A DNA stretch of 64,000 nucleotides from an uncultured Candidatus Saccharibacteria bacterium. GTDB lineage: Bacteria; Patescibacteriota; Minisyncoccia; Sungbacterales; HO2-52-23. A model generated the notes under the pieces. The model saw only the letters and a list, made by a program, of their open reading frames with translations, was not told where the DNA came from and ran no database searches. This document shows, one piece after another, positions 13,057 through 62,505 of the stretch. The DNA lies in NCBI GenBank assembly GCA_964412615.1, contig CAYPPK010000001.1:54983-118982 (forward strand), given 5' to 3'. The first letter of the stretch is position 1; every line of letters begins with the position of its first letter. The position numbers were made by a program, and so were the translations under genes.

Positions 13057-13921
13057 TATTTTAAAATCCTGGGTCCGCCCACTGGTTGCTTGGGTAGCCA
13101 AGCCCTATCTGGAAAGCTACGCCGGCCTGGAGGATGTTTTTTACCGGAGAAACCATATCGTTGCCTTTGACCTGGAGGATGTGCGGATGAATGTTCGCTC
13201 CCCCTGGAATCCACCTCCCGAAGTCGGGGAATACATAAAAAACGGCCTGCTTTCCAGACCTCCGCTTTATGACGGTCTTTCTCTTAAGTTATGGTCTTTT
13301 GCTTTTGATCGCGGCACGGGGGTTCTTAATCTGGAAGTAAGCTACGGCTGCTACAGCCAGTATTTTTTTACTAACCTTGACGATGAATTTCGGAGGAAAT
13401 TTTCTAACTCGCGATATTGGTTCAATGCTTTAAATATCGGCGCTTTGTTGATTACCGCCGACAACAAATTACGCCTGCATAAGAGATCGCCTGATGCCCG
13501 GCAGTCACCTGGTAAACTGGATACTCCTTGCGGGCACCCCACCGGGATGAAAGAAGTTCCCGCCAAGGAACTTATTCCGGCTGCTTTGGAGGCAATTTTA
13601 AAAAAGGAGTTGGGTTTTGCGGTAACCATAACTTCAACCCTTCCCTTGGTGGCTTTTATTGCTCATCCCAATTTAGATTTTAATTTGATGTATTTGGTCA
13701 AAGTAGCCGAGACCGGCAAAGAATTGGAGGCGCGAAAAATGGCTTTATCAGGCGAGAAGCACAAAGAGGTTTACTTTATTGACGCGGCTACGGAAAACCT
13801 TACTTCTTTTCTTAAATCCAGGCGGCGGGAATTAAGCCGTTCTTTGCCCGAAGCCATACTTCATCTTATTCGCCGAGAGCGTCTGAAAATTCGCCATTCC
13901 CAAAATTCTAAGATGGCATAA
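13043..13921 (+). CDS. hypothetical protein
   Basis: Internal ATG 13043 avoids long overlap with preceding gene; no family recognised with confidence. Confidence 0.35.
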   Translation: MTLPSILKSWVRPLVAWVAKPYLESYAGLEDVFYRRNHIVAFDLEDVRMNVRSPWNPPPEVGEYIKNGLLSRPPLYDGLSLKLWSFAFDRGTGVLNLEVSYGCYSQYFFTNLDDEFRRKFSNSRYWFNALNIGALLITADNKLRLHKRSPDARQSPGKLDTPCGHPTGMKEVPAKELIPAALEAILKKELGFAVTITSTLPLVAFIAHPNLDFNLMYLVKVAETGKELEARKMALSGEKHKEVYFIDAATENLTSFLKSRRRELSRSLPEAILHLIRRERLKIRHSQNSKMA

Positions 13922-15255
13922 CTCGCCAGAACAAAAATAAAGGCGTTTATCGGATAACGATGCCGGCCCTGGTCCGAAAAGCCGGCCGCCAGCGATCCTC
14001 CGGCATAAATCAAAATTATGGCGGCCAGAACAAGGCTGACGAAACGCTCGCGGCCTACATTCCTTAAAGCAAAAATGGCGCCGGCAATCCAGAGTAAGGT
14101 AAGCGCTATCCAGAAAGCGCGCCCGAGGACAGGGATGACGGCAAGCAGCCCCATCGTACTCCAGACGCGGCTGGCAAGCTCCAACGGGCCTTCCCGCAGA
14201 AGCAGCACCGAAGGAGAAAAATCAATCGGGAAATGAGGGATAACTTTAAAGTAGCGAAGATAGGTCGTATAGAGGTCCTGGGTGAAAAAGGAGTTGGCGG
14301 TAATTGCCAGAGTCGCAGCGGTCGCGCGAGGATGCTCAAGCATAATCCGAAAACCTTCTTTGGCCAGCACTGGCCCCAGCGCCGGATTTTCACTGATATC
14401 TTTGGGATCTACGCCGAGACGCTGGGCGAGTGAAAGTTTTAGCTCTTCTTCCACAAGGTGATAGGGGCGCCCCGTGCGATAGGTTTCAACCGAAACCGCT
14501 AGGTCGGTATAAATATTGCGCGCCCCGGTGGTAGTTCCGGAAAGTGAACCGAACTCGGCGTAATTTCTTGTCAGCCACGGAGACATTACGGCGATAAAAA
14601 TCAGCGGAAAAATCAAAACGGTCTGCCAGGAAAGCTTTTTAAATAATGCAGCCAGGAGAAGAAATAACATGGCAACCGGGAAAAGATAATATGGTTCCGG
14701 ACGAGTAAGAGCCGCCAGAGCCAAGACAAGACCGGCAAGGAGAGCGTATACTCTTGAATTATTTTGGACAAATCGGATGAAAAAAAGCGCGGCTAAAGTA
14801 AGAAAAAATACGGCGATGGCGTCAGTCAGCACCGTAAAACTCCAAAGCATGCCTAAGGGCTCAAAAGCGGTAAGGCCCGCGGCTATAAGCGGAACTTTTT
14901 CTCTCTCAGTCAGTTCTAATCCGATTTTCCATACTAAGATCGGCATGAGCGCGGAAAGGATAATTTGAAAAAATATCAAAGGGACTACCGAGTTGCTTAA
15001 GAAAAGAGACGCTGAAACAAGCAAAGAGTAAAGTGGAGGAAAAAAAGCGCTCGCCCGGAAAGGTTCAGAAATATCACGGGAGAAGCCGCGCCCCTCAAGT
15101 AAATTTTGCGCGGTTTGGTAGAATCCTTGGGAATCGGGAAGAAAAAAACCCTGTTCTCCGAAATTGAAAAAAACAAGTCCAGCTAAGGCCAGTCGTATCA
15201 AAAAAGCGCCTATAATTAGGAATAAGAGAAGACGCTGATTCTTGAGCATAATCAT
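13861..15255 (-). CDS. GT-C-fold membrane glycosyltransferase (ArnT/PMT-like, polyprenol-phosphate-sugar dependent)
   Basis: 464 aa, >10 predicted TM helices, layout typical of GT39/GT83-like GT-C enzymes. Confidence 0.55.
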   Translation of the reverse strand: MIMLKNQRLLLFLIIGAFLIRLALAGLVFFNFGEQGFFLPDSQGFYQTAQNLLEGRGFSRDISEPFRASAFFPPLYSLLVSASLFLSNSVVPLIFFQIILSALMPILVWKIGLELTEREKVPLIAAGLTAFEPLGMLWSFTVLTDAIAVFFLTLAALFFIRFVQNNSRVYALLAGLVLALAALTRPEPYYLFPVAMLFLLLAALFKKLSWQTVLIFPLIFIAVMSPWLTRNYAEFGSLSGTTTGARNIYTDLAVSVETYRTGRPYHLVEEELKLSLAQRLGVDPKDISENPALGPVLAKEGFRIMLEHPRATAATLAITANSFFTQDLYTTYLRYFKVIPHFPIDFSPSVLLLREGPLELASRVWSTMGLLAVIPVLGRAFWIALTLLWIAGAIFALRNVGRERFVSLVLAAIILIYAGGSLAAGFSDQGRHRYPINAFIFVLASYAILEFWEWRIFRRSRRIR

Positions 15256-44522: not shown

Positions 44523-44804
44523 ATGGCATTACTATTAATGTCTTTATTTATGCCTGAAGAAAAGAAAGATATAGCTAAATGGGTTATAGTTTTTATCTCC
44601 TTGGCTGTCGGTTTGGGCGGCGGGTATTATTTTGGTCTTAATCGCGGGGTGGCTAAAGAAAAAGCAGCGGAAGAAGCAAGAAAACTTGAGGCAGAAAAAG
44701 CAGCGGCCAAAGCCGTGAATCCTTTTGAGCAGGTTTCCAGCAATCCTTTTGAAAAAGCCCCAGTAAATCCGTTTGAAAATGTTAAGACGAATCCGTTTGA
44801 ATAA
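44523..44804 (+). CDS. small membrane protein with four C-terminal NPFE repeats
   Basis: 93 aa; TM helix then (V/S/T)NPFE x4. Confidence 0.3.
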   Translation: MALLLMSLFMPEEKKDIAKWVIVFISLAVGLGGGYYFGLNRGVAKEKAAEEARKLEAEKAAAKAVNPFEQVSSNPFEKAPVNPFENVKTNPFE

Positions 44805-44808
44805 CTTT

Positions 44809-46761
44809 ATGCAGAAAAAAAATCTCATATTTGCTTCTGCTATTTTTGCATTAGCGCTAAGCTACTCCGCGTTCATCTATGCGCAGGAGTTCACTTATCC
44901 TGTTCCGGAGCTTGGGAACTGCGAATCGCAGGAAGCATGTAAGGCATATTGCGACGATTCTAGCCACCTTGACGAATGCGTACAATTTGGAGAGAAGCAT
45001 AACCTTCTGGATAAAGAAGAGTTAAAAAAAGCCAAAGAGTTTGAGGGGCAGACCGGCCCCGGCGGATGCCAAGGCGCCAACGAGTGCCGCGCTTATTGCG
45101 AGGACTCCAGCCATCAAAATGAATGTCTTGAGTTTGGCCAACGCAAGGGATTAATCTCCGATCAAAACGCTGAAGTCACTCGGCGCGTGCGCCAGGAAGG
45201 CGGTCCGGGAGGATGCAAAGACGAAAAAGAATGCCGTGCCTATTGCGAAGATCCGGCCAATCTTGATCAATGCTTTGCGTTTGCCGAGACCAATGGATTG
45301 ATTTCCGGAGAAGAAGCCAGCCGCCTTAAAAAAATGGCTTTAGTTTCCGGCCCCGGCGGCTGCAGGGGAAATGAATGCCGAACTTATTGCGAGGATCCCG
45401 GCCACCAACAGGAATGCATTGCGTTTGCGGAGGAAAACGGATTGATGTCTAAAGAAGAGGCGGAGCGGGCCAAAAAATTTGCCGGGAAAACCGGTCCGGG
45501 AGGATGCCGGGGAGAAGAATGCCGCACTTTTTGCGAAAATCCGGAAAGTGCGGGAGGCTGTCTGGATTTTGCGGCCAAAGAAGGATTGATGCCTCCGCAA
45601 GAATTGGAAAGAGCCCGGAAATTTATAAAAGTGTCGCAAGAAGGAGGTCCGGGGGGATGCAAAGGAGGGCAATGCCGGGAATTTTGCGCGGATCCTGCCA
45701 ATCAAAACCAATGTTTTGAGTTTGCCAAAAAGCAGGGGCTCATTAACCCCGCAGAGGAAAAACAGTTTGAGGCGGGAATGAAAATAAGGGAAAAATTGGA
45801 AACGACCGGCGGTCCGGGAGGATGTAAAAATGAAAATGACTGCCGCGCGTATTGCGCCGATCCTGATCGCGTGGAAGAATGCGTGGCCTTTGGCGCTGCG
45901 CATGGCGGCATTCCCGAAACGGAAGCGCGTGAAATGCTGAAAAATTTTCAAGAAAAGCGTTTTGAATTGCGCCAGGAGTTTCGGCCGCCGGAAGATTTTG
46001 CCCGATTTAAAGAGGAGGCGGAAAGAAGGTTTGAGGAATTTAAGCAGCTGGAAATACAATTTCGCAATCGGCCGGAATTAATGGGTCCACCCGCGGGCGG
46101 AGAATTTCCCGCGGGCAGCGGAGCTGAAAGCGGGCAAGTCGGGCCCGGCGGATGTTCTTCAGCATCGGAGTGTATAAAATATTGTTCCGAGCATAAAGAA
46201 GAATGCTTTAGTTTCGGACCGGCAGGAAAACCAGACGTGCTGCCTCCGCAGGGGGGAATTCCTCCCGGACAAGATGGATCTGCCGGCAGATCGGATTTTC
46301 CGCAACTGCGCCAGGATGCCGTGCAATTACGTCCTAGATTAGAACCACGGCCGAAAGATTTAAAAATTGAGCCGCAGCTCAAGAAAGAATTGGAGCAGCG
46401 TTTTCCTGAAGAATTTGAAAGGCGTTCGCCAGAAAATTTTTCGCCTTCTCCCGAAAATATTCAGCCACCCCAGATGAGAACTTTTCCTGCTCCGCCGGAA
46501 GGATTCAAGCCGTCAGATTTACCGTCTGTTTCGCCAAGACCGGAATCATTTTCGCCCCCAGCTGATAATTTCTCGCGTCCGCCTGACAATTCTTTCCTGC
46601 CGCCACCGGTATCGGCACCTCTGCCCAGCGGTTCATTTGAGCAGCAATTCACTCCCGCACCGGACAGCACCGGAGGAGAACAAGCACCGCCGCCTCCGCC
46701 TCCCAGCAGCAGCTTAAATAGCGGTTTTCTGGCCAGTATTATCCATTTCTTTGTCTGGTAA
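44809..46761 (+). CDS. secreted protein with about 9 tandem Cys-rich repeats (GPGGC..ECR.YCEDP....C..F) and Pro-rich C-terminal region
   Basis: Signal peptide MQKKNLIFASAIFALALSYSAFIYA; about 40-aa unit with 4 conserved Cys repeated about 9 times (tandem 120-bp DNA repeats 45040..45900); C-terminal P/S-rich region and hydrophobic tail. Confidence 0.5.
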   Translation: MQKKNLIFASAIFALALSYSAFIYAQEFTYPVPELGNCESQEACKAYCDDSSHLDECVQFGEKHNLLDKEELKKAKEFEGQTGPGGCQGANECRAYCEDSSHQNECLEFGQRKGLISDQNAEVTRRVRQEGGPGGCKDEKECRAYCEDPANLDQCFAFAETNGLISGEEASRLKKMALVSGPGGCRGNECRTYCEDPGHQQECIAFAEENGLMSKEEAERAKKFAGKTGPGGCRGEECRTFCENPESAGGCLDFAAKEGLMPPQELERARKFIKVSQEGGPGGCKGGQCREFCADPANQNQCFEFAKKQGLINPAEEKQFEAGMKIREKLETTGGPGGCKNENDCRAYCADPDRVEECVAFGAAHGGIPETEAREMLKNFQEKRFELRQEFRPPEDFARFKEEAERRFEEFKQLEIQFRNRPELMGPPAGGEFPAGSGAESGQVGPGGCSSASECIKYCSEHKEECFSFGPAGKPDVLPPQGGIPPGQDGSAGRSDFPQLRQDAVQLRPRLEPRPKDLKIEPQLKKELEQRFPEEFERRSPENFSPSPENIQPPQMRTFPAPPEGFKPSDLPSVSPRPESFSPPADNFSRPPDNSFLPPPVSAPLPSGSFEQQFTPAPDSTGGEQAPPPPPPSSSLNSGFLASIIHFFVW

Positions 46762-46822: not shown

Positions 46823-47905
46823 ATGTTTGGCAAAGTTTTCATTTCGGTTTTTGTTTTGGGAATTATTGCGGCAGCTGCTGCTTTCTTTTCCTTGGTTCCA
46901 ATTTCTAAAGAAACGGCAAAAAATTCGGAGAGAACACCAGCCACTATTCCCTTGGCTGAACCGGCGAAAGAAAATCCTCCTGAGGTTCGCCAAGTTGAGA
47001 TTGCCCTGCCGCCAATGGAATTGCCTCCGGTTGCTGCTCCGGTACTGCCTCAAGCTGCAGCAACCACTAATCCGGAAGTTCCAGCAAAAATTGAAATAAA
47101 AGCAGAGGATCCGCCAACCGGTCCGCCAGCTGGCGGACTAGAAAATATACCGGAAAAACCAACACTTCCTCCTTTGCGGGAAACGGAAATTTTAAAAGCA
47201 GTAGTAAAAATTCAGTGTCCAACCACAGACGGCCTGGGTAAGTATGTCGGTTCCGGATTTGTTATGGCCGGCGGTACGGTAATTACCGCCGCGCATGTGC
47301 TTAAGGATTCCAGTAGCAGAAATTGTGATGTTATCTTCCCGAATGACCGAAGACCTGTTCATTACTTGCGCGGCATTACCGAGGACTTGGAAATCATCCG
47401 CCAGCGGCATGATAAAGAGGGGATTGATGTGGCATACCTTACTCTGCCTGCTTTGGATTCTTATCCGGAAGCGGCTGCTATTTTCAGCAGTTATCCGAAA
47501 ATTTCTTATCCGATTTGCTCTGAACCGGAAATGCTTAATGATCGGCTGCTGCACTTTGGTTATCCTTCCAACTATGCGGATCAGTCATATCTTTCCCGAC
47601 AAGAAGGCAAAGCCGTAATTTATGCTGATATTAAAAGCGTAAAGAACCAGCTTTCTGAGGATCAAACCTATATCTATAGAACTCCTGTTTTTGCCTATAC
47701 CTATGATCAAAGTGAAATGCGTTCGTATATGGTAAGCCAAGTGGCTTCTTTTTACGGCGATTCAGGGGGTCTGGCTTTCAACGCGGATAAGCAATGCGTC
47801 ATCGGCCCGCATCGGGGAGGAACCATCGGCAAAGCAGCCGGAGAAAATTATTCCGTATTCATGAATTTGGGCTGGGAAAAAGCAAAATCCGTTTTGCCTA
47901 ATTAA
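46823..47905 (+). CDS. trypsin-like serine protease (S1 family) with N-terminal TM anchor and Pro-rich linker
   Basis: TAAHV (His), GDSGG (Ser) catalytic motifs; N-terminal hydrophobic helix. Confidence 0.65.
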   Translation: MFGKVFISVFVLGIIAAAAAFFSLVPISKETAKNSERTPATIPLAEPAKENPPEVRQVEIALPPMELPPVAAPVLPQAAATTNPEVPAKIEIKAEDPPTGPPAGGLENIPEKPTLPPLRETEILKAVVKIQCPTTDGLGKYVGSGFVMAGGTVITAAHVLKDSSSRNCDVIFPNDRRPVHYLRGITEDLEIIRQRHDKEGIDVAYLTLPALDSYPEAAAIFSSYPKISYPICSEPEMLNDRLLHFGYPSNYADQSYLSRQEGKAVIYADIKSVKNQLSEDQTYIYRTPVFAYTYDQSEMRSYMVSQVASFYGDSGGLAFNADKQCVIGPHRGGTIGKAAGENYSVFMNLGWEKAKSVLPN

Positions 47906-47995
47906 TGTTTGACATCTTTTTTAACACCCTGAGGGTACTTGACTTTTTTGGGCCGTAGTGTAAACCGGTATTTAGAACATGAACAAGGAGACGCT

Positions 47996-49618
47996 ATGGC
48001 AAAGCCCTCTGCGGAATATTGGGAATCTCGAGGAATTCCAAAAGAACTGTGTGAAGCCTATAAAGTTTTCTATGATGCCTGCAGGGTAATAAAAGTAGGC
48101 GGGGTTGATTGGCGTATCTTCCCTGGCGTGCCGGCAACTGACTCAATGGATGAAGGTCTCAAGAGACTGGATGAATTTGGCTTAGCCATTAGACTGGGGT
48201 TTTATTCAATTCTTTTGGGTCCAAATGAGGAAGCGACAAAATTTTTGGATAGTATGCAATGGGATGAGAGAAGAGTTGTTCTTTACAGGGTAGGTATGGA
48301 ATTTGCTAGGTCAAACATGGACGGAGGATTGAAATCTCCTGTTATACTTAGACATGCCGGCCAATTGCTCGGGGATAGTCCTTTATTAAATGAGGTTAGA
48401 GACCTGATACGTCAAGCGGCCCTGAGACCTATTACCGTTGTCCTAGAAGGAGATACTGGCACAGGCAAAGAACTGGTTGCCCGTCTTCTGCATAACGACA
48501 GCGATAGGAGAGAGCAACCATTTGTACCCATAAACTGCGCGGCGGTCCCCGAAACTCTTATGGAAAGCACGCTCTTCGGTCACGAAAGGGGTGCTTTTAC
48601 CGGCGCCGTAAATCGGCATCACGGTGTTTTTGAACAAGCAAATCACGGGACTCTCTTTCTAGATGAGATTACCGAACTTCAGTTGCACCTCCAGGCTAAG
48701 CTCCTGCGGGTTCTGCAGGAAGGAAAAATCAGAAGAGTTGGGGGGAAAGAAGATCTTGTAGTTGACGTGCGAGTGGTCGCGGCTACCAATAAAGGCCTTC
48801 TTAAAGCGCTTGCCGAAAGGACTCTCCGCCAGGATCTTTTCTATCGGCTGGACGTGGTGAGAATCCACATGCCTTCGCTAAGGGACCGTCCAGAGGACAT
48901 TGTCCTCTTGGCTCAGCATTTTTTGCTAAAAACATGCGCCTCCTGGGGAATTAATCCTCTTCCGGGGTTTTCTCCCGAGGCAATAGCTGCAATGCGTCTG
49001 CATTCCTGGCCGGGCAATGTCCGGGAGCTGGAAGCATGCGTTACTCGGGCACTGGTTAAGCATACGGGCGGCGTGATCGCCGAGAAGGATTTGGGAATCA
49101 ACGGCAAAAATACGGGAATTGAATCAGAACCGGATGAAGCGGAAGTGCTAAAGACATATTATGAGGTTCAGAGGGGACATGTTCTGCGGGTGCTAGAAGC
49201 CTGCAACTGGAACAGAACACATGCGGCTAAGATCTTGGGGGTTACCGTGAGGACTATAAGAAACAATCTGCGCAGAGAGAAAGAAGAAAGGATGCGCCGT
49301 GGTCAAAAAGGACTTGTGATTCCAGCCGGAGGCGATGGTCGCTCAATATCGGGGGTTCCAAGACCAGGGTTTGAAAAAGAGATTAAGAAAGGCGTAAGCA
49401 AACTTTTGGGTGATAAAGATTTTGGACCGGTTCATAAGCAAGATTGGCCTCCAAGAGGAGATAAAGGTTCCGATGTTACTAGAATTAGACTATTGCTTGT
49501 CGCACGAGCTCTCCGCCAAACAGACTTCCAAAAACGAAAAGCAGCCGAGTTACTAGGTATTTCGGAAGGCACTCTCGCTGCTTGGGCGAGCATGATTCGA
49601 AGGGTATACAGCCGATAA
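47996..49618 (+). CDS. sigma-54-dependent transcriptional activator (bacterial enhancer-binding protein), Fis-type HTH plus extra C-terminal HTH
   Basis: AAA+ domain with Walker A GDTGTGKE, GAFTGA loop, Walker B LFLDEI, R-finger; HTH LEACNWNRTHAAKILGVTVRTIRN; second HTH-like AAELLGISEGTLAAW; start ATG 47996 preceded by AAGGAG. Confidence 0.75.
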   Translation: MAKPSAEYWESRGIPKELCEAYKVFYDACRVIKVGGVDWRIFPGVPATDSMDEGLKRLDEFGLAIRLGFYSILLGPNEEATKFLDSMQWDERRVVLYRVGMEFARSNMDGGLKSPVILRHAGQLLGDSPLLNEVRDLIRQAALRPITVVLEGDTGTGKELVARLLHNDSDRREQPFVPINCAAVPETLMESTLFGHERGAFTGAVNRHHGVFEQANHGTLFLDEITELQLHLQAKLLRVLQEGKIRRVGGKEDLVVDVRVVAATNKGLLKALAERTLRQDLFYRLDVVRIHMPSLRDRPEDIVLLAQHFLLKTCASWGINPLPGFSPEAIAAMRLHSWPGNVRELEACVTRALVKHTGGVIAEKDLGINGKNTGIESEPDEAEVLKTYYEVQRGHVLRVLEACNWNRTHAAKILGVTVRTIRNNLRREKEERMRRGQKGLVIPAGGDGRSISGVPRPGFEKEIKKGVSKLLGDKDFGPVHKQDWPPRGDKGSDVTRIRLLLVARALRQTDFQKRKAAELLGISEGTLAAWASMIRRVYSR

Positions 49619-53764: not shown

Positions 53765-54805
53765 ATGACTCAACTCATGTTACCCATAAGACCGGAGGAG
53801 GCGACCCGAACGCTACTAAAAAAGCTGCCTACTAAGCGTATGCGCGACGTGGTGGAAAAACGCTTTGGTCTGCGGGGAGGGAAAAAGAAAACTTTAGAAG
53901 CAATCGGCCGGGAATACAAAATTACCAGGGAGCGAGTGCGCCAAATTGAAGCCGATGCTTTAAAACATTTGGCTAAACCTGAAAACTATCAGGAAATAGA
54001 GCCGACTTTGGCTGCTCTGGAAAATCATTTTCAAAATTGGGGAGGAGTCATTGCCGAACATCATTTCATTGCTATGGTTGAAAATTCTCGGCAAGTTCCG
54101 CATCTGGTTTTACTTTTAAAAATAGGGAAAGCATTTTCCGAGCTGCCTGAAAACAATCATTTGCATCGTCGCTGGGCGACGGATAAAAATGCGGCTTTGG
54201 CAGCGGAAAAAATAGTAGAAAAAGCTAAAACTCATTTAATGGAATGCGGCCAGCCTTTGCCTCGGCCCGAGCTGCAAGGGGTGGTGGCAAAATTCGCCAC
54301 TGAAATTTTTGGAAAGGAATTAACGCCCAATATCCACGAAGCGCAGCTTGGAATATCTCGGGACATCCGCAAAAATCCTTACGGCGAATACGGTTTGACC
54401 AGCTGGCCAACCATAAACCCCCGAGGGGTGAAGGACAAAGCTTACTTGGTACTTTCTAAAACCAAAAAGCCCATGCACTTCCGGGAAGTCGCTGATGCCA
54501 TTAATCATCTGGGCTGGAACAAACGCAAAGCTCATCCGCAAACCGTGCACAACGAACTGATTAAAGACAACCGTTTTGTTTTGGTGGGAAGAGGGCTCTA
54601 TGCTTTGCAAGAATGGGGTTATGAACCGGGAACCGTGCGAGAAATCCTGGTATCGATATTTAAACAAGCCGGCAAACCATTAAGCAAAGACGAAGTTATA
54701 AAAAAGGTATTGGAAAAGAGGTTTGTCAAACCACCCACTATTTTGCTCAATCTGCAAGATAAATCTTTATTTAAGCGGGCTGACGACGAATACACCTTGG
54801 CCTAG
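53765..54805 (+). CDS. hypothetical protein with N-terminal sigma-70 region-4-like HTH
   Basis: EAIGREYKITRERVRQIEADALKHL resembles sigma-70 r4 HTH; remainder unassigned. Confidence 0.4.
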   Translation: MTQLMLPIRPEEATRTLLKKLPTKRMRDVVEKRFGLRGGKKKTLEAIGREYKITRERVRQIEADALKHLAKPENYQEIEPTLAALENHFQNWGGVIAEHHFIAMVENSRQVPHLVLLLKIGKAFSELPENNHLHRRWATDKNAALAAEKIVEKAKTHLMECGQPLPRPELQGVVAKFATEIFGKELTPNIHEAQLGISRDIRKNPYGEYGLTSWPTINPRGVKDKAYLVLSKTKKPMHFREVADAINHLGWNKRKAHPQTVHNELIKDNRFVLVGRGLYALQEWGYEPGTVREILVSIFKQAGKPLSKDEVIKKVLEKRFVKPPTILLNLQDKSLFKRADDEYTLA

Positions 54806-54855: not shown

Positions 54856-56169
54856 TTGGCCATGCTTGACCTATTGCAAATAATTTTTGCGGTCCAAACC
54901 TGGATCTTTTCGCTCTGGTGGCTTTGGCTTTTTCTTGTTTTGGTTTATTTGGCATTTTCTATCTGGATGGCCTACGTGCAGGATTATTTTAAAAAATCCA
55001 TTAAGTGGGTGATGCTGGAAATGCGCGTTCCTCGCGAACTCCGCAAAAGCCCCCGGGCCATGGAGCAGATTTTTATGTCCATGCACGCCATGAGAAATTC
55101 TCCCGGCCAAGTGAAAGATAAGTATTGGGAAGGAGAGACCTCCATGTGGTTTTGCTGCGAAGTGGTTAGTTTTGGCGGAGAGATCCATTTTTATTTGCGG
55201 GTTCCGGAAAAAAATAAAAACATGGTGCAGTCGGCTTTTTACGCCCATTATCCGGACATTGAAATTACCGAAGTAGGTGAAGATTACATCCATCGTTTTC
55301 CCGAAAAAGTAGAAGAGGTGGAAGCGCTTGGTTATAATTTTTTTGGCAACGAGTTGATCTTGGCTAAACAAGACGCTTATCCTATCCGCACTTTTTACGA
55401 TTTTGAAGCAAATGAGGAAGAGCAGCAGCTGGATCCGGTGGCAACCCTGCTGGAAAACTTAAACAAACTTACGCCGCAGGAAAATATTATGGTGCAGATT
55501 TTAATTCGCCCTACCGATGATTCTTGGAAAAAGGAGTCGGAAAAATTAGTACAGGTATTAAAAGAGAAAGTTAGGACCGAATTTTCTACGGCCAGCGGCA
55601 AAATTGCTTTTACCGAGCGGACGCCGGGGGAAATGGAAACCATGAAGGCAATTGAGCGCAATATCAGCAAGCCCGGCTTTGATACGGTTATTCGCTATCT
55701 TTATATTGCTAAGAAAGAAGTATACAGCATGCATTTTGCCAGGCGGGGAGTTTTTTCCTCTTTTAATCAGTATGCTTCCGAAGCCTTAAATAAATTCAAG
55801 CACAATGTAAAAGCTTGGACCACTTCCAGCATGTGGGACCCTCCTTATGTTTTCCCCAAACACAGGGTCAAAGATAGAAAAGACCGTATTTATGCTAATT
55901 ACCGCCAGCGCTGGATGCATGAGGACACTTTTACCGGCAAATTGCTGCAAATGAAATTTGCTGACTGGGGTTTTACCGGTCAGCGCAAAGAAGCAAGTTA
56001 TGTGCTTAATGTGGAGGAGCTAGCCACTATTTATCATCCGCCAACCAACATAGTTCTGACTGGGCCCCTTATTAAGCGAATAGAAGCCAAAAAAATTGGT
56101 CCTCCGGCTGGTTTGCCTATTTACGGGGAAGAAGGGGAAGAACCTAATCTGCCTGGAATTAAAAAATAG
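54856..56169 (+). CDS. membrane-anchored hypothetical protein (2 N-terminal TM helices), upstream partner of VirD4/TraG-like ATPase
   Basis: 437 aa; 5-bp gap to next gene (likely operon). Confidence 0.35.
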   Translation: MAMLDLLQIIFAVQTWIFSLWWLWLFLVLVYLAFSIWMAYVQDYFKKSIKWVMLEMRVPRELRKSPRAMEQIFMSMHAMRNSPGQVKDKYWEGETSMWFCCEVVSFGGEIHFYLRVPEKNKNMVQSAFYAHYPDIEITEVGEDYIHRFPEKVEEVEALGYNFFGNELILAKQDAYPIRTFYDFEANEEEQQLDPVATLLENLNKLTPQENIMVQILIRPTDDSWKKESEKLVQVLKEKVRTEFSTASGKIAFTERTPGEMETMKAIERNISKPGFDTVIRYLYIAKKEVYSMHFARRGVFSSFNQYASEALNKFKHNVKAWTTSSMWDPPYVFPKHRVKDRKDRIYANYRQRWMHEDTFTGKLLQMKFADWGFTGQRKEASYVLNVEELATIYHPPTNIVLTGPLIKRIEAKKIGPPAGLPIYGEEGEEPNLPGIKK

Positions 56170-56174
56170 ATAGC

Positions 56175-57629
56175 ATGTCTATGCCGAAAGAAGGCAGGAT
56201 ACATCTAAATAAATACGCTCCGCCGCCTCCCGAGTTGCCGGTCTACCAGCAAATAGATCCGCGGGAGGTTTCTTTTATCGGCCGCACCAATTACGAGGCG
56301 CCTCTGGAATCCAAGAAATATATTTTTGGCATCAGGCGCAAAGACCGCCGGCGCCATGTTTATATCGTGGGCAAGTCCGGAGTGGGCAAATCAAAACTTT
56401 TGGAACTTATGGCACGCCAGGATATTGCTTACGGCCATGGGGTTTGTTTGATTGACCCGCACGGAGACGTGATAGAAGAAGTTTTAAAATTTATTCCGGA
56501 AGAGCGCGTTGGAGACGTGATTTTGATTGATCCGGCCGACGCCGATTGGCCTATTTCTTTTAACCCCTTGCAAAAAGTGCCGCCTGATTTAAAGCATCAA
56601 ATGGCGCAGGGTTTGATTGAAGTCATGGAAAAACAATTCGGAGCCAACTGGACCCCGCGCCTGGAGCATGTTTTTCGCTTTACAACCTTGGCTTTATTGG
56701 ATTATCCCGAGGCGACTTTGCGGGGTATGATCTCCATGCTAACTGACCGACCGTATCGCCAAAAAGTCATTGAATACATTACCGATGACATGGTAAAGCG
56801 CTTTTTTGCGGTAGAATTCGCCGATTGGTCGGAGAAGTTTGATACTGACGCCATCATTCCTTTGGTAAATAAACTCGGCCAATTTCTTTCCATGCCCATG
56901 CTGCGCAATATTTTTGCCCAGAAAGAAAATAAAATTGACTTGGAGGAGATAATGAACAATAAAAAAATCCTTCTGATTAACCTTTCCAAGGGCAAACTGG
57001 GAGAGGAAAATTCCAGTTTCTTCGGTTCCATGTTTATTACCAAGATCAAACAGGCCGGCATGGCGCGGGCCGGCATGCCGGAGGAAAAACGAACGGACTT
57101 TTATCTATATGTAGACGAGTTCCATAATTTAGTAACCGATTCTTTTACCAATCTTTTTTCTGAAGCGCGCAAGTACGGGCTTAACCTTACCGTCGCTCAC
57201 CAATATACCGCTCAGCTTTTACCTGAAGTGCTGGCTACTGTTTTGGGTAATGTGGCCAATATTATTATTTTCCGGGTTGGGGGCGATGACGCGGCCAAAC
57301 TGGAATCCGAAATGACTCCGGTTTTCAAGGCCAAAGACATGATTAACTTAGGCACGCAGGAATTTTATATCAAAGAAACAATTGACGGAGAGACCTATGA
57401 TCCTTTTTCTGCCGAAACTCTTAAGATTCTTCCGGCTCCGCATCCTTCTTACAAAAGCAAAATTATAGAGGCTTCCCATCAAAAATACGCCATGCACGTG
57501 GAGGAAGTTAAAAAAATGCTCAAAGAGGAAGAAGAGGCGGTGATTTTCAGGAAAAATGGCAATACTTCTTCTGCCACTTCCGCCGACAATGCGAATGGCT
57601 ACGAGTCTCCACCCGAACCACTGATTTAA
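56175..57629 (+). CDS. VirD4/TraG/TraD-like P-loop ATPase (DUF87/TraG-D_C type, 'type IV secretion DNA-binding domain' family)
   Basis: Walker A GKSGVGKS, Walker B FYLYVDEFHN, AHQY motif; paralog of 60508..62505. Confidence 0.6.
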   Translation: MSMPKEGRIHLNKYAPPPPELPVYQQIDPREVSFIGRTNYEAPLESKKYIFGIRRKDRRRHVYIVGKSGVGKSKLLELMARQDIAYGHGVCLIDPHGDVIEEVLKFIPEERVGDVILIDPADADWPISFNPLQKVPPDLKHQMAQGLIEVMEKQFGANWTPRLEHVFRFTTLALLDYPEATLRGMISMLTDRPYRQKVIEYITDDMVKRFFAVEFADWSEKFDTDAIIPLVNKLGQFLSMPMLRNIFAQKENKIDLEEIMNNKKILLINLSKGKLGEENSSFFGSMFITKIKQAGMARAGMPEEKRTDFYLYVDEFHNLVTDSFTNLFSEARKYGLNLTVAHQYTAQLLPEVLATVLGNVANIIIFRVGGDDAAKLESEMTPVFKAKDMINLGTQEFYIKETIDGETYDPFSAETLKILPAPHPSYKSKIIEASHQKYAMHVEEVKKMLKEEEEAVIFRKNGNTSSATSADNANGYESPPEPLI

Positions 57630-57631
57630 TT

Positions 57632-57802
57632 ATGACTGCAAATCTCACGAAACGCATTTGGATTTTTTTATCCGCCTATGGTGTCTTTTTTGCGCTGCTT
57701 TCCTTTAGTCAGGAAATTTGGACCAAAGGTCTTTGGTGGAAAGGACTAGGCGCGTTAGCCCTTGGTTTTATTTTATACCGGGTTGTGATACATAAAGTGT
57801 AA
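57632..57802 (+). CDS. small hypothetical membrane protein (56 aa, below ORF-track cutoff)
   Basis: ATG 57632 to TAA 57800-57802, TAATG overlap with next gene; two hydrophobic segments. Confidence 0.25.
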   Translation: MTANLTKRIWIFLSAYGVFFALLSFSQEIWTKGLWWKGLGALALGFILYRVVIHKV

Positions 57803-59559
57803 TGAACCAAGAAACCAAAATTTGCCAAAATTGCAAACAAAACTTCATCATTGAGCCGGAAGATTTTGCGTTCTATGAAAAAATTAAAGTTCCTCCGCCG
57901 ACTTGGTGCCCGGAGTGCAGATTTCAGCGGCGGGCAGTATCCAGAAACGAGCGCAATCTTTTTCGGGTGAAAGACGCGCATGACGGGAAAGAAATCTTTT
58001 CCGGCATTCCGCCGCAGGCCAACCTAAGGGTTTATGAGCGTGATTTCTGGTGGTCAGACGGTTGGGATCCCATGGACTACGGTCGTGATTATGATTTCTC
58101 GCGGCCTTTCTTTGAGCAGTTTAGAGAACTGATGCACGAAGTACCATTTCCTGCACGCAATATACTTCGCCTGATAAATTCGGATTATTCTGATAATTGT
58201 GGAGATTCGAGGAACTGCTATTTGTGTTTTAACGTCGGGAATATAGAAGATTCTCTGTATATGGTTAGTGCCTATAACTGCCGGAATTGTTCTGACATTA
58301 GTATGACTTCAGAAACCGAACTTTCCTATGATTCTTTTGAAGTCGGCAATTCGTACAAGATATTTTTCTCTCATCATATAGATGATTCAAACAATATCTG
58401 GTTTTCTAAGGACCTTACGGGCTGTTCTTATTGTTTTGGATGTATAAATCTGCGCGGCAAGCAGTACTACATTTTTAATCAGCCGTATTCTAAAGAGCAA
58501 TATTTTGAGGAACTCAATAGAATAGATCTTGGCTCCTACGCAAATTTAGTTTCTATCGCTAAACGTGTAGAAAGTTTTTGGCAAAGTAATCCGAAAAAAT
58601 ATTATCATGGAGTACACAATGTTAATTCTACCGGAGACCATATCCATAACAGCAAAAACGTCCAGTGGTGTTTTGGCGTAACCGAGACCGAGGACTCAAA
58701 ATATTGCCAGGAAGTTTATAGAGGAGTGAAAGATTCCTATGACTATATGGACTGGGGGGATAAGTGTGAATTAATATACGAAGCCTGTGAGGTTGGACTT
58801 GGCGGGAGAGAAGTCAAATTTTCAACAGTATGCTGGCCGGAGGTTTTTGATATTGAGTATTCTATGAGATGCGGGTCGTCCTCTAATCTATTTGGTTGTA
58901 TTGGACTACGCAACAAGCAATACTGCATCTTGAACAAGCAATACTCAAAGGAAGATTATTTTAATCTTCGGGAAAAAATTATTAAACACATGGACGAGGT
59001 GCCGTATCAGGATAATAGAGGACATATTTATAAATATGGCGAGTATTTTCCTCCGGAATTTTCCTTAATTGCTTATAACGAAAGCTTAGCGCAAGATTAT
59101 TTTCCGCTAACAAAAGAAGAAGCACTCCGGCAGGGATACTTATGGCGAGATCCAAGCCCTCACGAGTTTCGAACCACAATTGCTGCCGAGGAACTTCCTG
59201 ATCATATAAAAGATGTAACCGACTCCGTCTTGAAAGAAATAATAAAATGTTTCAGTTGCGGCAAGGCTTATCGTTTTATTGAGCCCGAATTTTCTCTTCT
59301 CAAACAAAATGGAATCCCTCTCCCGCGGCTTTGTTGGATTTGTCGGCACAATCGTCGCCTAAAACTCCGTAATTATCCCCACTATTTTAGGAGAAAATGT
59401 ATGTGCGGTGGGACAAAAAGCAAGGATGGAAAATATGAGAATCAAGCCTCTCATTTTCACGGCCAGCAGCATTGCCCGAATGATTTTTTTACAACATTTA
59501 AATCTGACCGGCCTGATATAGTTTACTGCGAGCCATGTTATCAAGCAGAAATTCTATGA
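57802..59559 (+). CDS. Cys-rich protein with homologous N- and C-terminal zinc-ribbon modules and internal duplicated LFGCI.LR.KQY motifs, hypothetical
   Basis: 585 aa; CQNC...CPECR at N-terminus and CFSCG...CWICR at C-terminus flanked by similar FIEPE...P(P)..C motifs; about 30 Cys total. Confidence 0.4.
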   Translation: MNQETKICQNCKQNFIIEPEDFAFYEKIKVPPPTWCPECRFQRRAVSRNERNLFRVKDAHDGKEIFSGIPPQANLRVYERDFWWSDGWDPMDYGRDYDFSRPFFEQFRELMHEVPFPARNILRLINSDYSDNCGDSRNCYLCFNVGNIEDSLYMVSAYNCRNCSDISMTSETELSYDSFEVGNSYKIFFSHHIDDSNNIWFSKDLTGCSYCFGCINLRGKQYYIFNQPYSKEQYFEELNRIDLGSYANLVSIAKRVESFWQSNPKKYYHGVHNVNSTGDHIHNSKNVQWCFGVTETEDSKYCQEVYRGVKDSYDYMDWGDKCELIYEACEVGLGGREVKFSTVCWPEVFDIEYSMRCGSSSNLFGCIGLRNKQYCILNKQYSKEDYFNLREKIIKHMDEVPYQDNRGHIYKYGEYFPPEFSLIAYNESLAQDYFPLTKEEALRQGYLWRDPSPHEFRTTIAAEELPDHIKDVTDSVLKEIIKCFSCGKAYRFIEPEFSLLKQNGIPLPRLCWICRHNRRLKLRNYPHYFRRKCMCGGTKSKDGKYENQASHFHGQQHCPNDFFTTFKSDRPDIVYCEPCYQAEIL

Positions 59560-59664
59560 ATCCCACACATAACCCTGGGCAAGATATACAATCAGCTTTG
59601 CATAAAATACTTATAGCTACTTTGTTGTTGGGGAAAACCGGCACAAAGTTATGTGTGGGATGAA
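59556..59664. repeat. palindromic intergenic element family A, copy 3 (109 bp)
   Basis: ATGAA-TCCCACACATAAC ... GTTATGTGTGGGA-TGAA; left ATGAA contains the TGA stop of the upstream gene, right end supplies ATG 59660. Confidence 0.8.
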
Positions 59665-60079
59665 AAAAAAGAAGGTAATGGTTTTTGGGGTTTTTGATAA
59701 ATTGCATCAAGGGCATATTTATTTTCTGAAGCAGGCAAAAAAATACGGTGAAGTTGTGGCCGTGGTGGCTCCTCATAAAGTTGTCGCTCAACTTAAAAAA
59801 AAGACGCTACTTCAATCAGAAAAAGAGAGAATGCGGGCCTTGAAAAAACTGGTTGCCAAAGCAATTTTGGGTGATAAAGTACAAGGTAGTTATATGGTGT
59901 TAAAGAGGTATAAGCCGGATATTATCTGCCTGGGGTATGATCAGAAGTGGTTAAAAAAAGACCTTAAAGAGAAGATAAGGAAGAGGGCAATTCCTCGCAT
60001 TCTATTGATTGATATAAAGTCTTATTTTCCAGAGAAATTTCATTCTTCTTTGTTAAGAAAAGTCCCCATTAAAAATTAA
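59660..60079 (+). CDS. cytidylyltransferase-like nucleotidyltransferase (HxGH family; FMN adenylyltransferase/glycerol-3-P cytidylyltransferase-like)
   Basis: FGVFDKLHQGH motif of the nucleotidyl-transferase alpha/beta phosphodiesterase superfamily; start ATG 59660 from repeat. Confidence 0.55.
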   Translation: MKKKKVMVFGVFDKLHQGHIYFLKQAKKYGEVVAVVAPHKVVAQLKKKTLLQSEKERMRALKKLVAKAILGDKVQGSYMVLKRYKPDIICLGYDQKWLKKDLKEKIRKRAIPRILLIDIKSYFPEKFHSSLLRKVPIKN

Positions 60080-60110
60080 AAGGTCGCTAGTTAGGAGGGA
60101 GATCAAATTT

Positions 60111-60410
60111 ATGGTTTTCCTATATATTACTTGTCATAACGAAGAACAAGCAAGATCGCTGGGCAAAGCTTTGCTGGCTCGCCGAGCCGCGGGGAATATT
60201 CATTTTTTTCCCGCTTTTGCCATGAACCGCGGCAAGGGCGAAGCAGCAGAAACAAAAGAGATAGTAATGCTGGTGCAGACTGTTGATCAAAAAGTGCAGG
60301 AAATTGAAGACATCATCAGAAATATGAAGGCCGTGCCAAAAATCTGCGTGATTGCCATGTCCCGCCTAAGTCGTGAACATAAAGAATGGCTGACAACTCA
60401 AATTTCTTAA
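60111..60410 (+). CDS. cutA: divalent-cation tolerance protein CutA-like
   Basis: 99 aa; alignable to CutA1 (ferredoxin-like fold trimer) over full length. Confidence 0.6.
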   Translation: MVFLYITCHNEEQARSLGKALLARRAAGNIHFFPAFAMNRGKGEAAETKEIVMLVQTVDQKVQEIEDIIRNMKAVPKICVIAMSRLSREHKEWLTTQIS

Positions 60411-60507
60411 TTTTACAGTGGTAAAAGAGTTCATCCTTTCCATGCCTACCCTAGAAGCTAGGGTTTAAATGCTTGGCCAAAAATGTTATAATATAGCGAC
60501 CTGACCC

Positions 60508-62505
60508 ATGGCCAAAAACGAAAAAGATATTATTTATATAGGCAAATGCAATTTCCGCGGCAATGAGCGGGTTTTTGGCATTAAAACCAAAGATCGCCGC
60601 CAGCATATGTATGTAATCGGCAAGACCGGAGTGGGCAAGACCGCGCTTCTTAAAAATTTAGCGCTGCAAGATATCCGAGCGGGAAGAGGTTTGGCCATAA
60701 TTGATCCGCACGGTGAATTCGTGGAGGAAGTTCTCTCGCAAATTCCGCCAGAGCGAACCAACGATGTAATTTATTTCAATCCCGTTGATACGGAATTTCC
60801 CATCGGATTTAATGTTTTGGAAGTACCGGATCAAAAATACAAACACTTGGTAGTGTCTGACTTGTTGGGCATTTTTACTAAAATCTGGGCCAATGTCTGG
60901 TCGGCCCGCATGGAATACATTCTGCAAAATTGCATCATGGCCCTTTTGGATACTCCCGGCACCACGCTTTTGGGGATTCCGCGTCTTTTGGTAGACAAGG
61001 ACTATCGGCAAAAAATAATTGCCAACGTCAAAGATCCGGTAGTAAAATCCTTCTGGGTGCATGAATACGAGACCTGGCGGGATCAATTTAGAAACGAAGC
61101 CATAGTTCCAATTCAAAATAAGGTAAACCAGTTTTTAAATACCGCTTTTATCCGCAATATCGTAGGCCAGCCCAAATCCACGCTTAATATCCCAGAGATC
61201 ATGAATTCCCGGAAGATCCTTCTGGTTAATGTTTCCAAGGGAAGAATAGGAGAGGATAATTCCGCGCTCTTGGGCGCCATGATTATTACCAAAATACAAC
61301 TCGCGTCCATGGAACGCGTGAGAATTCTGGAAGACGAACGGGTGGATTTTTATTTATATGTGGATGAGTTCCAGAATTTTGCTACCGATTCTTTTGCCAG
61401 CATTTTATCCGAAGCAAGAAAATACCGACTAAACATTATTATCGCGCATCAATATGTAGGGCAGTTGGTAACTGATGTCTCCACTAAAGTCCGCGACGCG
61501 GTATTTGGTAACGTAGGAACTATGATTACATTTCGGGTGGGAGCTACGGATGCCGAATTTCTGGAGCCGGAATTTACTCCCGAGTTCATGGGACAGGATA
61601 TAATAAATCTTCCCAACCATCATGTTTATTTGAAATTAATGGTGGATGGAGTTACTTCTCGGCCGTTTTCTTCCGTTACGCTGCCCCCTTTGCAGTTTGA
61701 AACCGATCCGGAAGTGCGGGAGAAAATCATCAAGGTTTCGCGGCAGCGTTATGCTAAACCAAGAGTAGAAGTGGAAGATAAAATTTCACGCTGGAGTGGA
61801 CTTTCTGGAGAATTAGAGGAGAGGGGGAGCAGCGGAACCCCAGCTCTGCCGCCAGGCCAACTTATAGAAACTCCTTGCTGGAACTGCGGCAAAACCGCCA
61901 CCGTGCCGTTTAAGCCCGATGGCCGCCGGCCGGTTTATTGCATGTCCTGTCTTAAGCAGATAGAAGAGGGCAAACTTATTCCTATTCCCGAACGCATGCC
62001 TAAAGTTGGCCGGGAAAAATACAGCCAGTCTCTAGAAGGACTGGGAATTGAATTTGGAGCAGCAAGTAAGGAGACTCGGCCTTCTTATAACCAAAACCAA
62101 GATAGAAAGGAGCCAATGGCAGTTCCTGATAGAATTGGGAATCGTCCCGCTATGCCCAAAGGAAATAATTTTCAGCGCAATAAGCGACGGGAGGATGAAC
62201 GCGTGAAAACGCCCAGCAAAAAGGAAGAAATAAAAATGGGGATACGCTCGCAACCCGTGGTGCGGTCGGCTTCGGGAGTAAAGCCTATTTCACTTTCTTC
62301 TTTGGAGCCCAAAATAGAAGAAGAAAGTCCGACGAACGAAGAAAAAAAATCTCCAAATAAATTTCCCGGATTAAAAGAGCTTTTGCGCGAAGTACTCAAA
62401 ACTGATCAAAATCATAAAGAAGAAATAAAAACGACAGAAAATAAAAAAAGAGAAGCAAAAGAAAATAGCAAAATAGTAAAACCCGGAGATGTAATAAAAT
62501 TTTAA
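60508..62505 (+). CDS. VirD4/TraG/TraD-like P-loop ATPase with C-terminal zinc-ribbon and Lys/Glu-rich tail (paralog of 56175..57629)
   Basis: Walker A GKTGVGKT, Walker B FYLYVDEFQN, AHQY; C-terminal CWNCG...CMSC zinc ribbon and low-complexity K/E-rich tail. Confidence 0.6.
   Translation: MAKNEKDIIYIGKCNFRGNERVFGIKTKDRRQHMYVIGKTGVGKTALLKNLALQDIRAGRGLAIIDPHGEFVEEVLSQIPPERTNDVIYFNPVDTEFPIGFNVLEVPDQKYKHLVVSDLLGIFTKIWANVWSARMEYILQNCIMALLDTPGTTLLGIPRLLVDKDYRQKIIANVKDPVVKSFWVHEYETWRDQFRNEAIVPIQNKVNQFLNTAFIRNIVGQPKSTLNIPEIMNSRKILLVNVSKGRIGEDNSALLGAMIITKIQLASMERVRILEDERVDFYLYVDEFQNFATDSFASILSEARKYRLNIIIAHQYVGQLVTDVSTKVRDAVFGNVGTMITFRVGATDAEFLEPEFTPEFMGQDIINLPNHHVYLKLMVDGVTSRPFSSVTLPPLQFETDPEVREKIIKVSRQRYAKPRVEVEDKISRWSGLSGELEERGSSGTPALPPGQLIETPCWNCGKTATVPFKPDGRRPVYCMSCLKQIEEGKLIPIPERMPKVGREKYSQSLEGLGIEFGAASKETRPSYNQNQDRKEPMAVPDRIGNRPAMPKGNNFQRNKRREDERVKTPSKKEEIKMGIRSQPVVRSASGVKPISLSSLEPKIEEESPTNEEKKSPNKFPGLKELLREVLKTDQNHKEEIKTTENKKREAKENSKIVKPGDVIKF

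Follow-up and report, generated by a model that had tools for sequence, protein, structure and literature searches.

The window analysed here is a stretch of 64,000 nucleotides (nt) from an uncultured Candidatus Saccharibacteria bacterium (contig CAYPPK010000001.1 of assembly GCA_964412615.1, positions 54,983 to 118,982 of the forward strand). The subject of this report is a locus at window positions 54856-62505 that encodes a membrane protein of the DUF8128 family, two P-loop ATPases (designated ATP1 and ATP2) and, between these, a Cys-rich protein. An earlier note, made from the sequence without database searches, had proposed that these four open reading frames (ORFs) constitute a translocation module. 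Each ORF is present as the note had placed it (see the table), and the DUF8128 and ATP1 genes are separated, as it had claimed, by 5 nt. It is well supported that the locus is a real and extremely conserved module, whose ATPase belongs to the type IV coupling protein (T4CP) family, is split and tethered to the membrane, comes with a VirB4-like accessory domain and has been duplicated in the window's lineage.

Table. Genes and features of the locus and its neighbourhood (positions in the window; aa, amino acids; TM, transmembrane; NJ, neighbour-joining)
Feature	Position	Strand	Basis
DUF8128 (PF26449) protein, 437 aa; N-terminal TM anchor, VirB4-like cytoplasmic domain, C-terminal peptide	54856..56169	+	
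TM segment of DUF8128, about aa 17-42, WIFSLWWLWLFLVLVYLAFSIWMAYV	54904..54981	+	Kyte-Doolittle, conservation, model
C-terminal peptide of DUF8128, aa 404-425, ...KRIEAKKIGPPAGLPIYGEEG	56065..56130	+	Alignment of homologues
ATP1, soluble T4CP-like P-loop ATPase, T1 clade, 484 aa	56175..57629	+	Pfam/NCBIfam, motifs, NJ tree
Cys-rich protein, 585 aa, 29 Cys	57802..59559	+	
ATP2, soluble T4CP-like P-loop ATPase, T2 (ancestral-type) clade, 665 aa	60508..62505	+	Pfam/NCBIfam, motifs, NJ tree
CxxC-x17-CxxC treble-clef zinc ribbon of ATP2, aa 453-484 (zf_Tbcl_2 / TIGR04272)	61864..61959	+	
Cytidylyltransferase-like nucleotidyltransferase, 142 aa	59651..60079	+	Pfam CTP_transf_like, E 9e-12
CutA1 homologue, 99 aa	60111..60410	+	Pfam CutA1, E 3e-13
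346-aa protein, sigma-70 region 4 (aa 23-70) + HARE-HTH (aa 222-284)	53765..54805	+	Pfam matches

ATP1 and ATP2 are paralogues (45% identity over 422 aa, E 6e-130) and carry the motifs that the earlier note had read in them: Walker A (GKSGVGKS / GKTGVGKT; aa 66-73 of ATP1 and 38-45 of ATP2), Walker B (...YLYVDEF; about aa 310-316 and 282-288, respectively) and AHQY (aa 341 and 313). Among sequences that are 34-61% identical to ATP2, there is no variation in Walker A, in the Walker B glutamate or in the QY motif. The proposed T4CP-like identity is borne out by a Pfam search, in which TrwB_AAD_bind, DUF87 and TraG-D_C score above their gathering thresholds with both ATPases (TrwB_AAD_bind 40.1 and 53.0 bits, cut-off 20.5; TraG-D_C 24.3 and 27.7 bits, cut-off 22). 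A profile built from 26 orthologous ATPases and compared with the PDB finds TrwB (E 4e-9) and DotL (E 1e-5), and no VirB4. The ~240 residues between Walker A and Walker B align to positions 11-311 of the 387 of TrwB_AAD_bind, a spacing that would be compatible with an all-alpha domain inserted into the nucleotide-binding domain. (VirD4-like TrsK and VirB4-like TrsE of pSK41 were considered as close relatives of ATP2 and rejected; pairwise BLAST aligned the Walker regions only.) Neither ATPase has an N-terminal TM segment: no 19-residue window of ATP2 scores above 1.6, and the single such window of ATP1 is internal, at about aa 348 inside the ATPase fold.

ATP2 extends beyond the ATPase domain in a zinc ribbon (zf_Tbcl_2 46.9 bits, cut-off 27; TIGR04272 48 bits, cut-off 36) and a K/E-rich, low-complexity tail of 235 aa with 29 Glu and 29 Lys, both as previously described. 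How this extension is distributed, and how the two ATPases are related, emerges from a scan of one genome per species for related loci. The scan returned >515 loci, of which the best 80 are used for all locus counts given here; all 80 are in patescibacterial metagenome-assembled genomes, labelled mostly as Parcubacteria-type candidate phyla. In an NJ tree, the ATPases separate into a clade containing ATP1 (T1), a clade containing ATP2 together with the ATPases of single-ATPase loci (T2), and a clade of fused proteins (considered below). The pattern C..C-x(10-25)-C..C is found in 22 of 45 complete T2 ATPases, ATP2 included, and in no T1 ATPase. More distant lineages have a single ATPase after DUF8128, which is 50-58% identical to ATP2 as against 41-51% to ATP1. 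In the window's own clade it is the T1 ATPase that follows DUF8128, with the T2 gene shifted to a position farther downstream. The ancestral state in the related loci thus looks like one ATP2-type ATPase directly following DUF8128.

The protein encoded upstream of ATP1 is a true partner of the ATPase, and not an unrelated conserved neighbour, as is evident from conserved adjacency and, decisively, from gene fusions. An ATPase gene follows DUF8128 on the same strand in 65 of the 71 related loci with enough sequence, and does so within about 1.1 kb in 58; in single-ATPase lineages the gap is mostly between -4 and about 230 nt. One locus (L049, Portnoybacteria) has, in addition to the split pair, a single ORF that combines the TM helix, the DUF8128 domain and the ATPase. 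When this fused ORF served as query, at least 120 clusters were found whose proteins, of ~815 aa, have PF26449, PF10412 and PF01935, several of them carrying the NCBI name 'type IV secretory system conjugative DNA transfer family protein'. Residues 22-369 of one fused protein (P0437) align to residues 31-424 of DUF8128 (E 1e-22), and the alignment ends at a conserved PP..LP motif just before the P-loop domain. DUF8128 and the soluble ATPase are a TM–DUF8128–ATPase polypeptide divided over two genes, and the undivided form is common in other Patescibacteria. In another locus (L085, OZ246412.1; 1-2421 and 10001-12448) a split pair, whose 514-aa ATPase has a zf_Tbcl_2 ribbon, is accompanied 7.6 kb downstream by a fused 815-aa copy. 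The fused copy there is preceded by a conserved ORF of ~124 aa with no Pfam match, which is also found in L086 and L049.

Both halves of the pair have relatives outside the Patescibacteria. A tblastn search of plasmids and phages with DUF8128 found the N-terminus of an 867-aa 'DUF87 domain-containing protein' encoded by a Niallia plasmid (WP_338473401.1, NZ_CP137637.1) and gp156 of Bacillus phage G. In the Niallia protein, the DUF8128 profile aligns to residues 55-182 (hhalign probability 97%, E 8e-11) and ATP2 to residues 324-746 (26% identity over 441 aa, E 2e-36); no TM stretch is evident on reading the N-terminus of the Niallia protein. Downstream (3') of the fused gene lie genes for Replic_Relax (the MOB_C class of relaxase; PMC5357655), a conjugal-transfer protein, TcpE and an AAA_10 VirB4-like ATPase. 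A B. subtilis plasmid of 65 kb repeats this layout, and at least 80% of the Niallia fused protein is covered in 17 plasmid records. Since its gene is directly 5' of that for the MOB_C-type relaxase and near TcpE- and VirB4-like genes, the Bacillaceae protein occupies the slot expected of the coupling protein in monoderm conjugation machinery equipped with a VirB4 of its own. The literature search turned up no experimental study of this protein. (An assignment of the 65-kb B. subtilis plasmids as pLS20-like was dropped; the pLS20 literature that was found does not mention Replic_Relax.) In phage G (L082, JN638751.1, 3186-7328), gp156, with a DUF8128-like N-terminus and a DUF87/TraG-D_C ATPase, adjoins gp155, which is VirB4-like (P-loop_TraG/AAA_10), so that a jumbo phage genome encodes a pair of T4SS-type ATPases (T4SS, type IV secretion system).

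That homologues reside in plasmid transfer regions, and that the splitting of a once-fused gene can be read as decay, might suggest that the locus is the remnant of an integrated conjugative element, devoid of present function. This is strongly disfavoured, to the point of being barely credible: about 50 positions are invariant in DUF8128, and about 50 in the ATPases, among sequences with 34-82% pairwise identity to the window proteins, the catalytic motifs are intact, and the split form is found at the same locus in hundreds of genomes.

The 437-aa protein is assigned to PF26449 by the precomputed Pfam annotation of an identical protein (P0001), and PF26449 is listed for most of its homologues; the family comprises 2,581 representative clusters at 50% identity. 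(The ORF begins at a TTG codon, 54856; an in-frame ATG two codons on, at 54862 ('MAM…'), may be the true start.) The earlier note's two N-terminal TM helices come down to one clearly hydrophobic and conserved segment (about aa 17-42; Kyte-Doolittle maximum 2.2, with a conserved WWLWLF core) and a second that is uncertain; the predicted model has helices at residues 2-19 and 21-48, of which the first is weaker in hydrophobicity and poorly conserved. A Lys-rich stretch follows the TM segment and suggests an N-out/C-in topology, which would leave the remainder of the protein in the cytoplasm. The note had also taken the upstream protein as a membrane anchor encoded separately from its ATPase. The anchor is indeed on the separate DUF8128 gene, but the protein is more than an anchor, with a cytoplasmic domain of ~400 aa behind one TM helix, the predicted model of which matches the VirB4 fold. 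Because DUF8128 has no P-loop and no other RecA-like ATPase is among its structural matches, we infer that the matched part is the N-terminal domain of VirB4. At the sequence level, no similarity of DUF8128 to other Pfam families (VirB4 N-terminal families included) or to PDB sequences was found.

This structural match lends itself to a different assignment of the whole locus, as a divergent VirB4-type assembly ATPase whose N- and C-terminal domains are encoded by separate genes, in the manner of TrsD and TrsE of pGO1 and pSK41. The layout of an N-terminal domain followed by an ATPase would conform, the N-terminal TM segment is reminiscent of VirB3-VirB4 fusions, and the division of VirB4 into TrsD and VirB4 is reported to be common in Patescibacteria (PMC12102498). 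The ATPases are at odds with this assignment: they match T4CP models and not those of VirB4, with no Pfam match to AAA_10 or CagE_TrbE_VirB, NCBIfam VirB4-like matches that are weak and partial (TrbE 23.5 vs 1020 bits, CD1110 23.8 vs 325), and TrwB and DotL as their relatives in the PDB. Moreover, Bacillus plasmids that have the fused protein possess a bona fide AAA_10 VirB4 as well, and Patescibacteria have a separate VirB4/TrsD pair near dnaA (PMC12102498). DUF8128 was rejected as a member of the TrsD family when hhalign comparison of its profile with pSK41 TrsD gave a probability of 0.3% (a weak test, with TrsD as a single sequence). A split VirB4 is accordingly a poor candidate for this locus.

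The C-terminus of DUF8128 offers a further indication of how the two genes are related. Its last ~25 residues (…KRVEARKVGPPAGLPIYGEEG) are predicted to be disordered, with model confidence (pLDDT) of about 42, and are yet invariant at G415, P416, P417, A418 and I422. This segment aligns with the inter-domain linker of fused P0437, ending at residue 369 of the latter, just before the ATPase domain. The T2 ATPases begin right after this point in the linker and are without the proline-rich motif. ATP1, in contrast, has a motif of its own close to its N-terminus (PPPPELPVY, aa 16-24, to be compared with GPPAGLPIY of DUF8128; window 56196-56246 corresponds to aa 8-24), and nearly all T1 ATPases have such a copy, IQIIKYAPPPP[ED]LP[IV]YG. 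At E < 0.01, a hidden Markov model (HMM) of the DUF8128 tail matches the N-termini of 8 of 31 T1 ATPases and those of none of the 45 T2 ATPases. That T1 N-termini copy the end motif of DUF8128, which T2 lacks, suggests that T1 arose by duplication across the gene junction or from a fused ancestor. By the same comparison, the DUF8128 tail would dock in trans, most likely on ATP2.

The locus sits at a fixed place in the chromosome. The block secD–secF–sigma4/HARE-HTH–DUF8128–ATPase…efp is near-universal among the 80 related loci; the gene order that the earlier note had thought unusual is, instead, the norm. Its statement that genes for T4SS structural proteins, relaxase and pilins do not accompany the ATPases holds for the window: none of the 37 ORFs scanned, which include most of the larger ORFs and only part of the small ones, matches such families. 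Products of the scanned ORFs include SecA, SecDF, GuaA, EF-P, MetK, MurB, ABC transporters and glycan-synthesis enzymes.

A housekeeping DNA pump that operates independently of any T4SS, comparable with FtsK/SpoIIIE or a DNA-uptake motor and serving segregation, division or import without secretion, would be at home in such surroundings. The ATPases belong to the FtsK-HerA superfamily, and the synteny with secDF, efp, aminoacyl-tRNA synthetases and DNA polymerase III gamma/tau is strict and vertical-looking, with no mobile-element genes. The fused copy adjoins a gene with an FtsQ-type POTRA domain in L049 and L086, and T4CP genes of Patescibacteria are generally far from virB4 (PMC12102498). 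On the other side, neither ATPase has a Pfam match to FtsK_SpoIIIE at E ≤ 0.01, and the nearest relatives outside Patescibacteria are in plasmid transfer regions, beside a relaxase gene. A DNA pump of this kind is rather unlikely.

The same fixed position among core genes, which is unlike that of defence islands, bears on the notion that a HerA/mad8-like ATPase forms the core of an anti-phage or conflict system, in which the Cys-rich proteins would act as sensors or effectors. PADLOC reports mad8 (54.6 and 48.7 bits, in a library without curated cut-off) and weak HerA matches, the Cys-rich paralogues are tandemly amplified and divergent, and in related loci a small TM protein with an Rx4H, HEPN-like motif is encoded between DUF8128 and the ATPase. 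The mad8 match is limited to the shared P-loop fold, however, the interval contains no nuclease, methylase or other defence partner, and the HEPN-like gene is absent from the window. The defence reading is very improbable, and was rejected on account of the core-gene context. The small TM protein (~170 aa) is nonetheless a recurrent element of this gene family's surroundings, encoded between DUF8128 and the T1 ATPase in many related loci (L007, ~11398-11866; L089, 4378-4896; L009, L013, L015, L018, L022-L024, L027, L030, L032, L034, L035, L037 and L039). Its single N-terminal TM helix is accompanied by a conserved domain at the C-terminus with 'AHRxRNxLVHTPG', in which the Rx4H motif is reminiscent of HEPN; no Pfam match is on record.

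The interpretation that we favour, with somewhat better than even confidence, is of an ATPase in two pieces, tethered to the membrane and belonging, within the FtsK-HerA superfamily, to the T4CP (VirD4/TrwB/TraD) branch, with a coupling or translocation role that we infer. It would probably be a substrate-coupling or translocation motor that serves a chromosomal T4SS. DUF8128 would sit in the membrane through a single TM helix, the large domain being cytoplasmic, and would recruit and organise a ring of ATPase subunits at the membrane. The GPPAGLPIYG peptide of DUF8128, which is a covalent linker in the fusions, would dock in trans onto ATP2, which lacks the motif; ATP1 has its own copy. ATP hydrolysis would drive a protein or nucleic acid substrate toward a membrane channel, most plausibly the relaxase-less chromosomal T4SS encoded elsewhere in Patescibacteria genomes. 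The zinc ribbon and K/E-rich tail of ATP2 could serve as receptor for substrate or adaptor, like the C-terminal extensions of TraD and DotL, and the Cys-rich zinc-ribbon/β-solenoid proteins that are amplified in the locus are candidates for cargo or adaptors. Of the earlier note's translocation system, then, T4CP-like ATPases with a true membrane partner stand; translocation itself is at the level of proposal, and the module is widespread.

Published work provides much of the setting. Among 2,918 Patescibacteria genomes, 5,713 homologues of VirD4-like T4CPs have been counted, about two per genome; just 148 of these are near virB4, and it has been suggested that the scattered T4CPs were possibly exapted (PMC12102498). 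Relaxases are few: 109 were counted, 39 of these near a t4cp gene, and MOB_C is the most frequent class; a relaxase-less chromosomal T4SS is widespread (PMC12102498). In Saccharibacteria this T4SS is essential for growth on the host, and its gene cluster has no recognisable coupling protein, relaxase or recognised substrate (PMC10633639). The ATPases as such are therefore already known, as T4CP homologues away from virB4.

Several considerations weigh against a coupling role at a T4SS. T4SS components are absent from the window and from every related locus inspected, so that the link to a T4SS channel is one of homology, and the fixed housekeeping synteny with secDF, efp and aminoacyl-tRNA synthetases fits a core cellular role equally well. 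In the one patescibacterium in which it was studied genetically, the T4CP homologue was non-essential and the T4SS essential (PMC12102498). The ATPases score far below NCBIfam equivalog cut-offs (SXT_TraD, 59 vs 366 bits; conju_CD1115, 50.8 vs 250; TOL TraD, 48.5 vs 647). The similarity of the window's own ATP1 to the DUF8128-tail motif is weak (E 0.16). Docking in trans, assembly of the ring and the role of Cys-rich proteins as cargo are proposals.

The Cys-rich protein is, as the earlier note had described it, a protein of repeated parts: it has 29 Cys (~30 had been claimed), its N- and C-terminal ribbons are related (aa 3-57 and 478-532, 36% identity, E 8e-7), and it contains an internal duplication (aa 130-241 and 278-393, 36% identity, E 6e-12). 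The layout is a treble-clef zinc ribbon, a unit of β-solenoid and helices that occurs twice, and C-terminal zinc ribbons. It is a member of a very large unannotated family of Patescibacteria. One to six tandem Cys-rich copies lie within the locus in 20 of the 24 loci with a complete T1 ATPase at least 68% identical to ATP1; there are none within ±10 kb in loci with divergent T1 or with T2 only. Three Cys-rich homologues, chosen for long contigs alone, are all in this same locus, two of them directly after DUF8128, and one of the three is within an array of at least eight unannotated genes for 450-600-aa proteins, which are probably paralogues. This association would suit a role as cargo or adaptor, but could also be clade-specific synteny. 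A dip in GC content to 0.40 at 58001-60000, which covers the Cys-rich and nucleotidyltransferase genes, is flanked by values of 0.44-0.45.

The extreme C-terminal ~60 aa of the Cys-rich protein (aa 525-585, 59374-59559) bear a weak likeness to the zinc ribbon of ATP2 (HMM E 7e-4 to 0.04 in a set of ~70 sequences), which is seen in the motif pair F.T.F..DRP.IVYCE.CYQ (Cys-rich) and VPFKPD..RPVYC..CL (T2 ribbon). The N-terminal and internal C-terminal ribbons of the Cys-rich protein do not match that of ATP2 (E > 0.07). It is because of this likeness, and of its placement inside the locus in one clade, that the Cys-rich protein may be considered a candidate for cargo or adaptor. A bolder proposal would make the locus a complete cassette of motor and cargo, in which the DUF8128-tethered ATPases recognise the Cys-rich proteins and either pass them to the relaxase-less T4SS or export them unaided, to act as effectors on host cells; ATP1 would have arisen together with the Cys-rich arrays, and the ribbon of ATP2 would be related to the C-terminal one of the Cys-rich protein. 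Taken jointly these propositions are unlikely to hold. If true, they would provide the first substrate family, as well as the missing coupling proteins, of a T4SS that is essential for the epibiotic lifestyle.

Among the remaining genes, the one for the sigma4/HARE-HTH protein is directly 5' of DUF8128 in 70 of 75 related loci (the gap in the window is 50 nt). Its product may be a dedicated regulator, a factor resembling the RNA polymerase delta subunit, or a mere syntenic neighbour. The nucleotidyltransferase gene is present in few related loci (L002, L030) and is probably an unrelated housekeeping gene. CutA1 recurs in T1-clade loci (L008, L021, L022, L031, L040, L041 and L089, in the last at 13628-13933) and is directly 5' of the ATP2-type gene in the window, in L008 (7940-8242) and in L022 (8257-8559). 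Its recurrence is in the clade with Cys-rich arrays, and the presence of a 'divalent-cation tolerance' protein beside zinc-rich proteins may mean something. A promoter-like site is found just 5' of ATP2 (60464-60492); the scan for promoters and terminators was otherwise uninformative, and an Rfam scan yielded nothing above threshold. Farther upstream, a gene of the sigma-54 enhancer-binding-protein type (47939-49618; Sigma54_activat and HTH_8) has a trypsin-like protease gene on one side and guaA on the other. Large ORFs without Pfam match are found 5' of secD in the window (662 aa, 44773-46761), L088 (886 aa) and L090 (876 aa), and are followed by a Trypsin_2 protease gene in the window (46823-47905) and in L088 (the spans are 500-4462 in L088 and 2113-4743 in L090).

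No publication was found, T4SS papers included, that describes the DUF8128 partner, the fold of this protein or the Cys-rich arrays, and a literature search on DUF8128, the function of CxxC-x17-CxxC and VirB4-like N-terminal domains in coupling proteins returned nothing relevant. The locus is not a new kind of machine; its value lies in concrete, testable hypotheses about what it may do. The orphan T4CP ATPases of Patescibacteria, which make up a large share of bacterial diversity, are now provided with a defined partner, the membrane-anchored DUF8128 protein with its VirB4-like fold, and the split pair is linked to a protein in the coupling-protein position of genetically tractable Bacillus plasmids.

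The window's module can be placed with respect to known systems as follows. Among its close counterparts are the fused TM–DUF8128–T4CP proteins (~815 aa) of Patescibacteria, which are alike in domains, domain order, chromosomal site and absence of T4SS neighbours, and differ in being encoded by one gene instead of two, in forming their own clade of the ATPase tree and in lacking the zinc ribbon. The closest relatives found outside Patescibacteria are the fusion of Bacillaceae plasmids and gp156 of phage G, both halves of which are homologous to, and collinear with, DUF8128 and ATP2; the plasmid protein differs as a single polypeptide encoded in a transfer region with MOB_C relaxase, TcpE and VirB4 genes. 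The structural match of DUF8128 to EccE of the mycobacterial ESX type VII secretion system is much weaker than that to VirB4, is without sequence similarity and may reflect a common α/β fold only. T4CPs proper (TrwB of R388, VirD4, TraD and DotL) share the P-loop domain (TrwB_AAD_bind, T4SS-DNA_transf, TraG-D_C), TrwB and DotL being the best PDB sequence matches; TraD and DotL have a C-terminal extension, as has ATP2, and in plasmids the fused relatives of the window pair adjoin a relaxase gene. The window ATPases differ from them in having no TM domain in the ATPase polypeptide, the anchor being on a separate gene with a ~400-aa VirB4-like domain of a type that canonical VirD4 and TrwB do not have; in the zinc-ribbon tail of ATP2; in a chromosomal housekeeping site with no relaxase or mating-pair genes; and in scores far below the equivalog cut-offs. 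With VirB4 (TrwK/TraC/TrbE) the likeness is in the fold of the N-terminal domain, which the DUF8128 model matches, whereas by every sequence test the ATPase domain is T4CP-like and unlike that of VirB4/TrwK or TrsD/TrsE (pGO1/pSK41). As judged from this model, the family combines a VirB4-type N-terminal domain with a VirD4-type motor, and a coupling-type ATPase so constituted bears on the divergence of VirB4 and VirD4.

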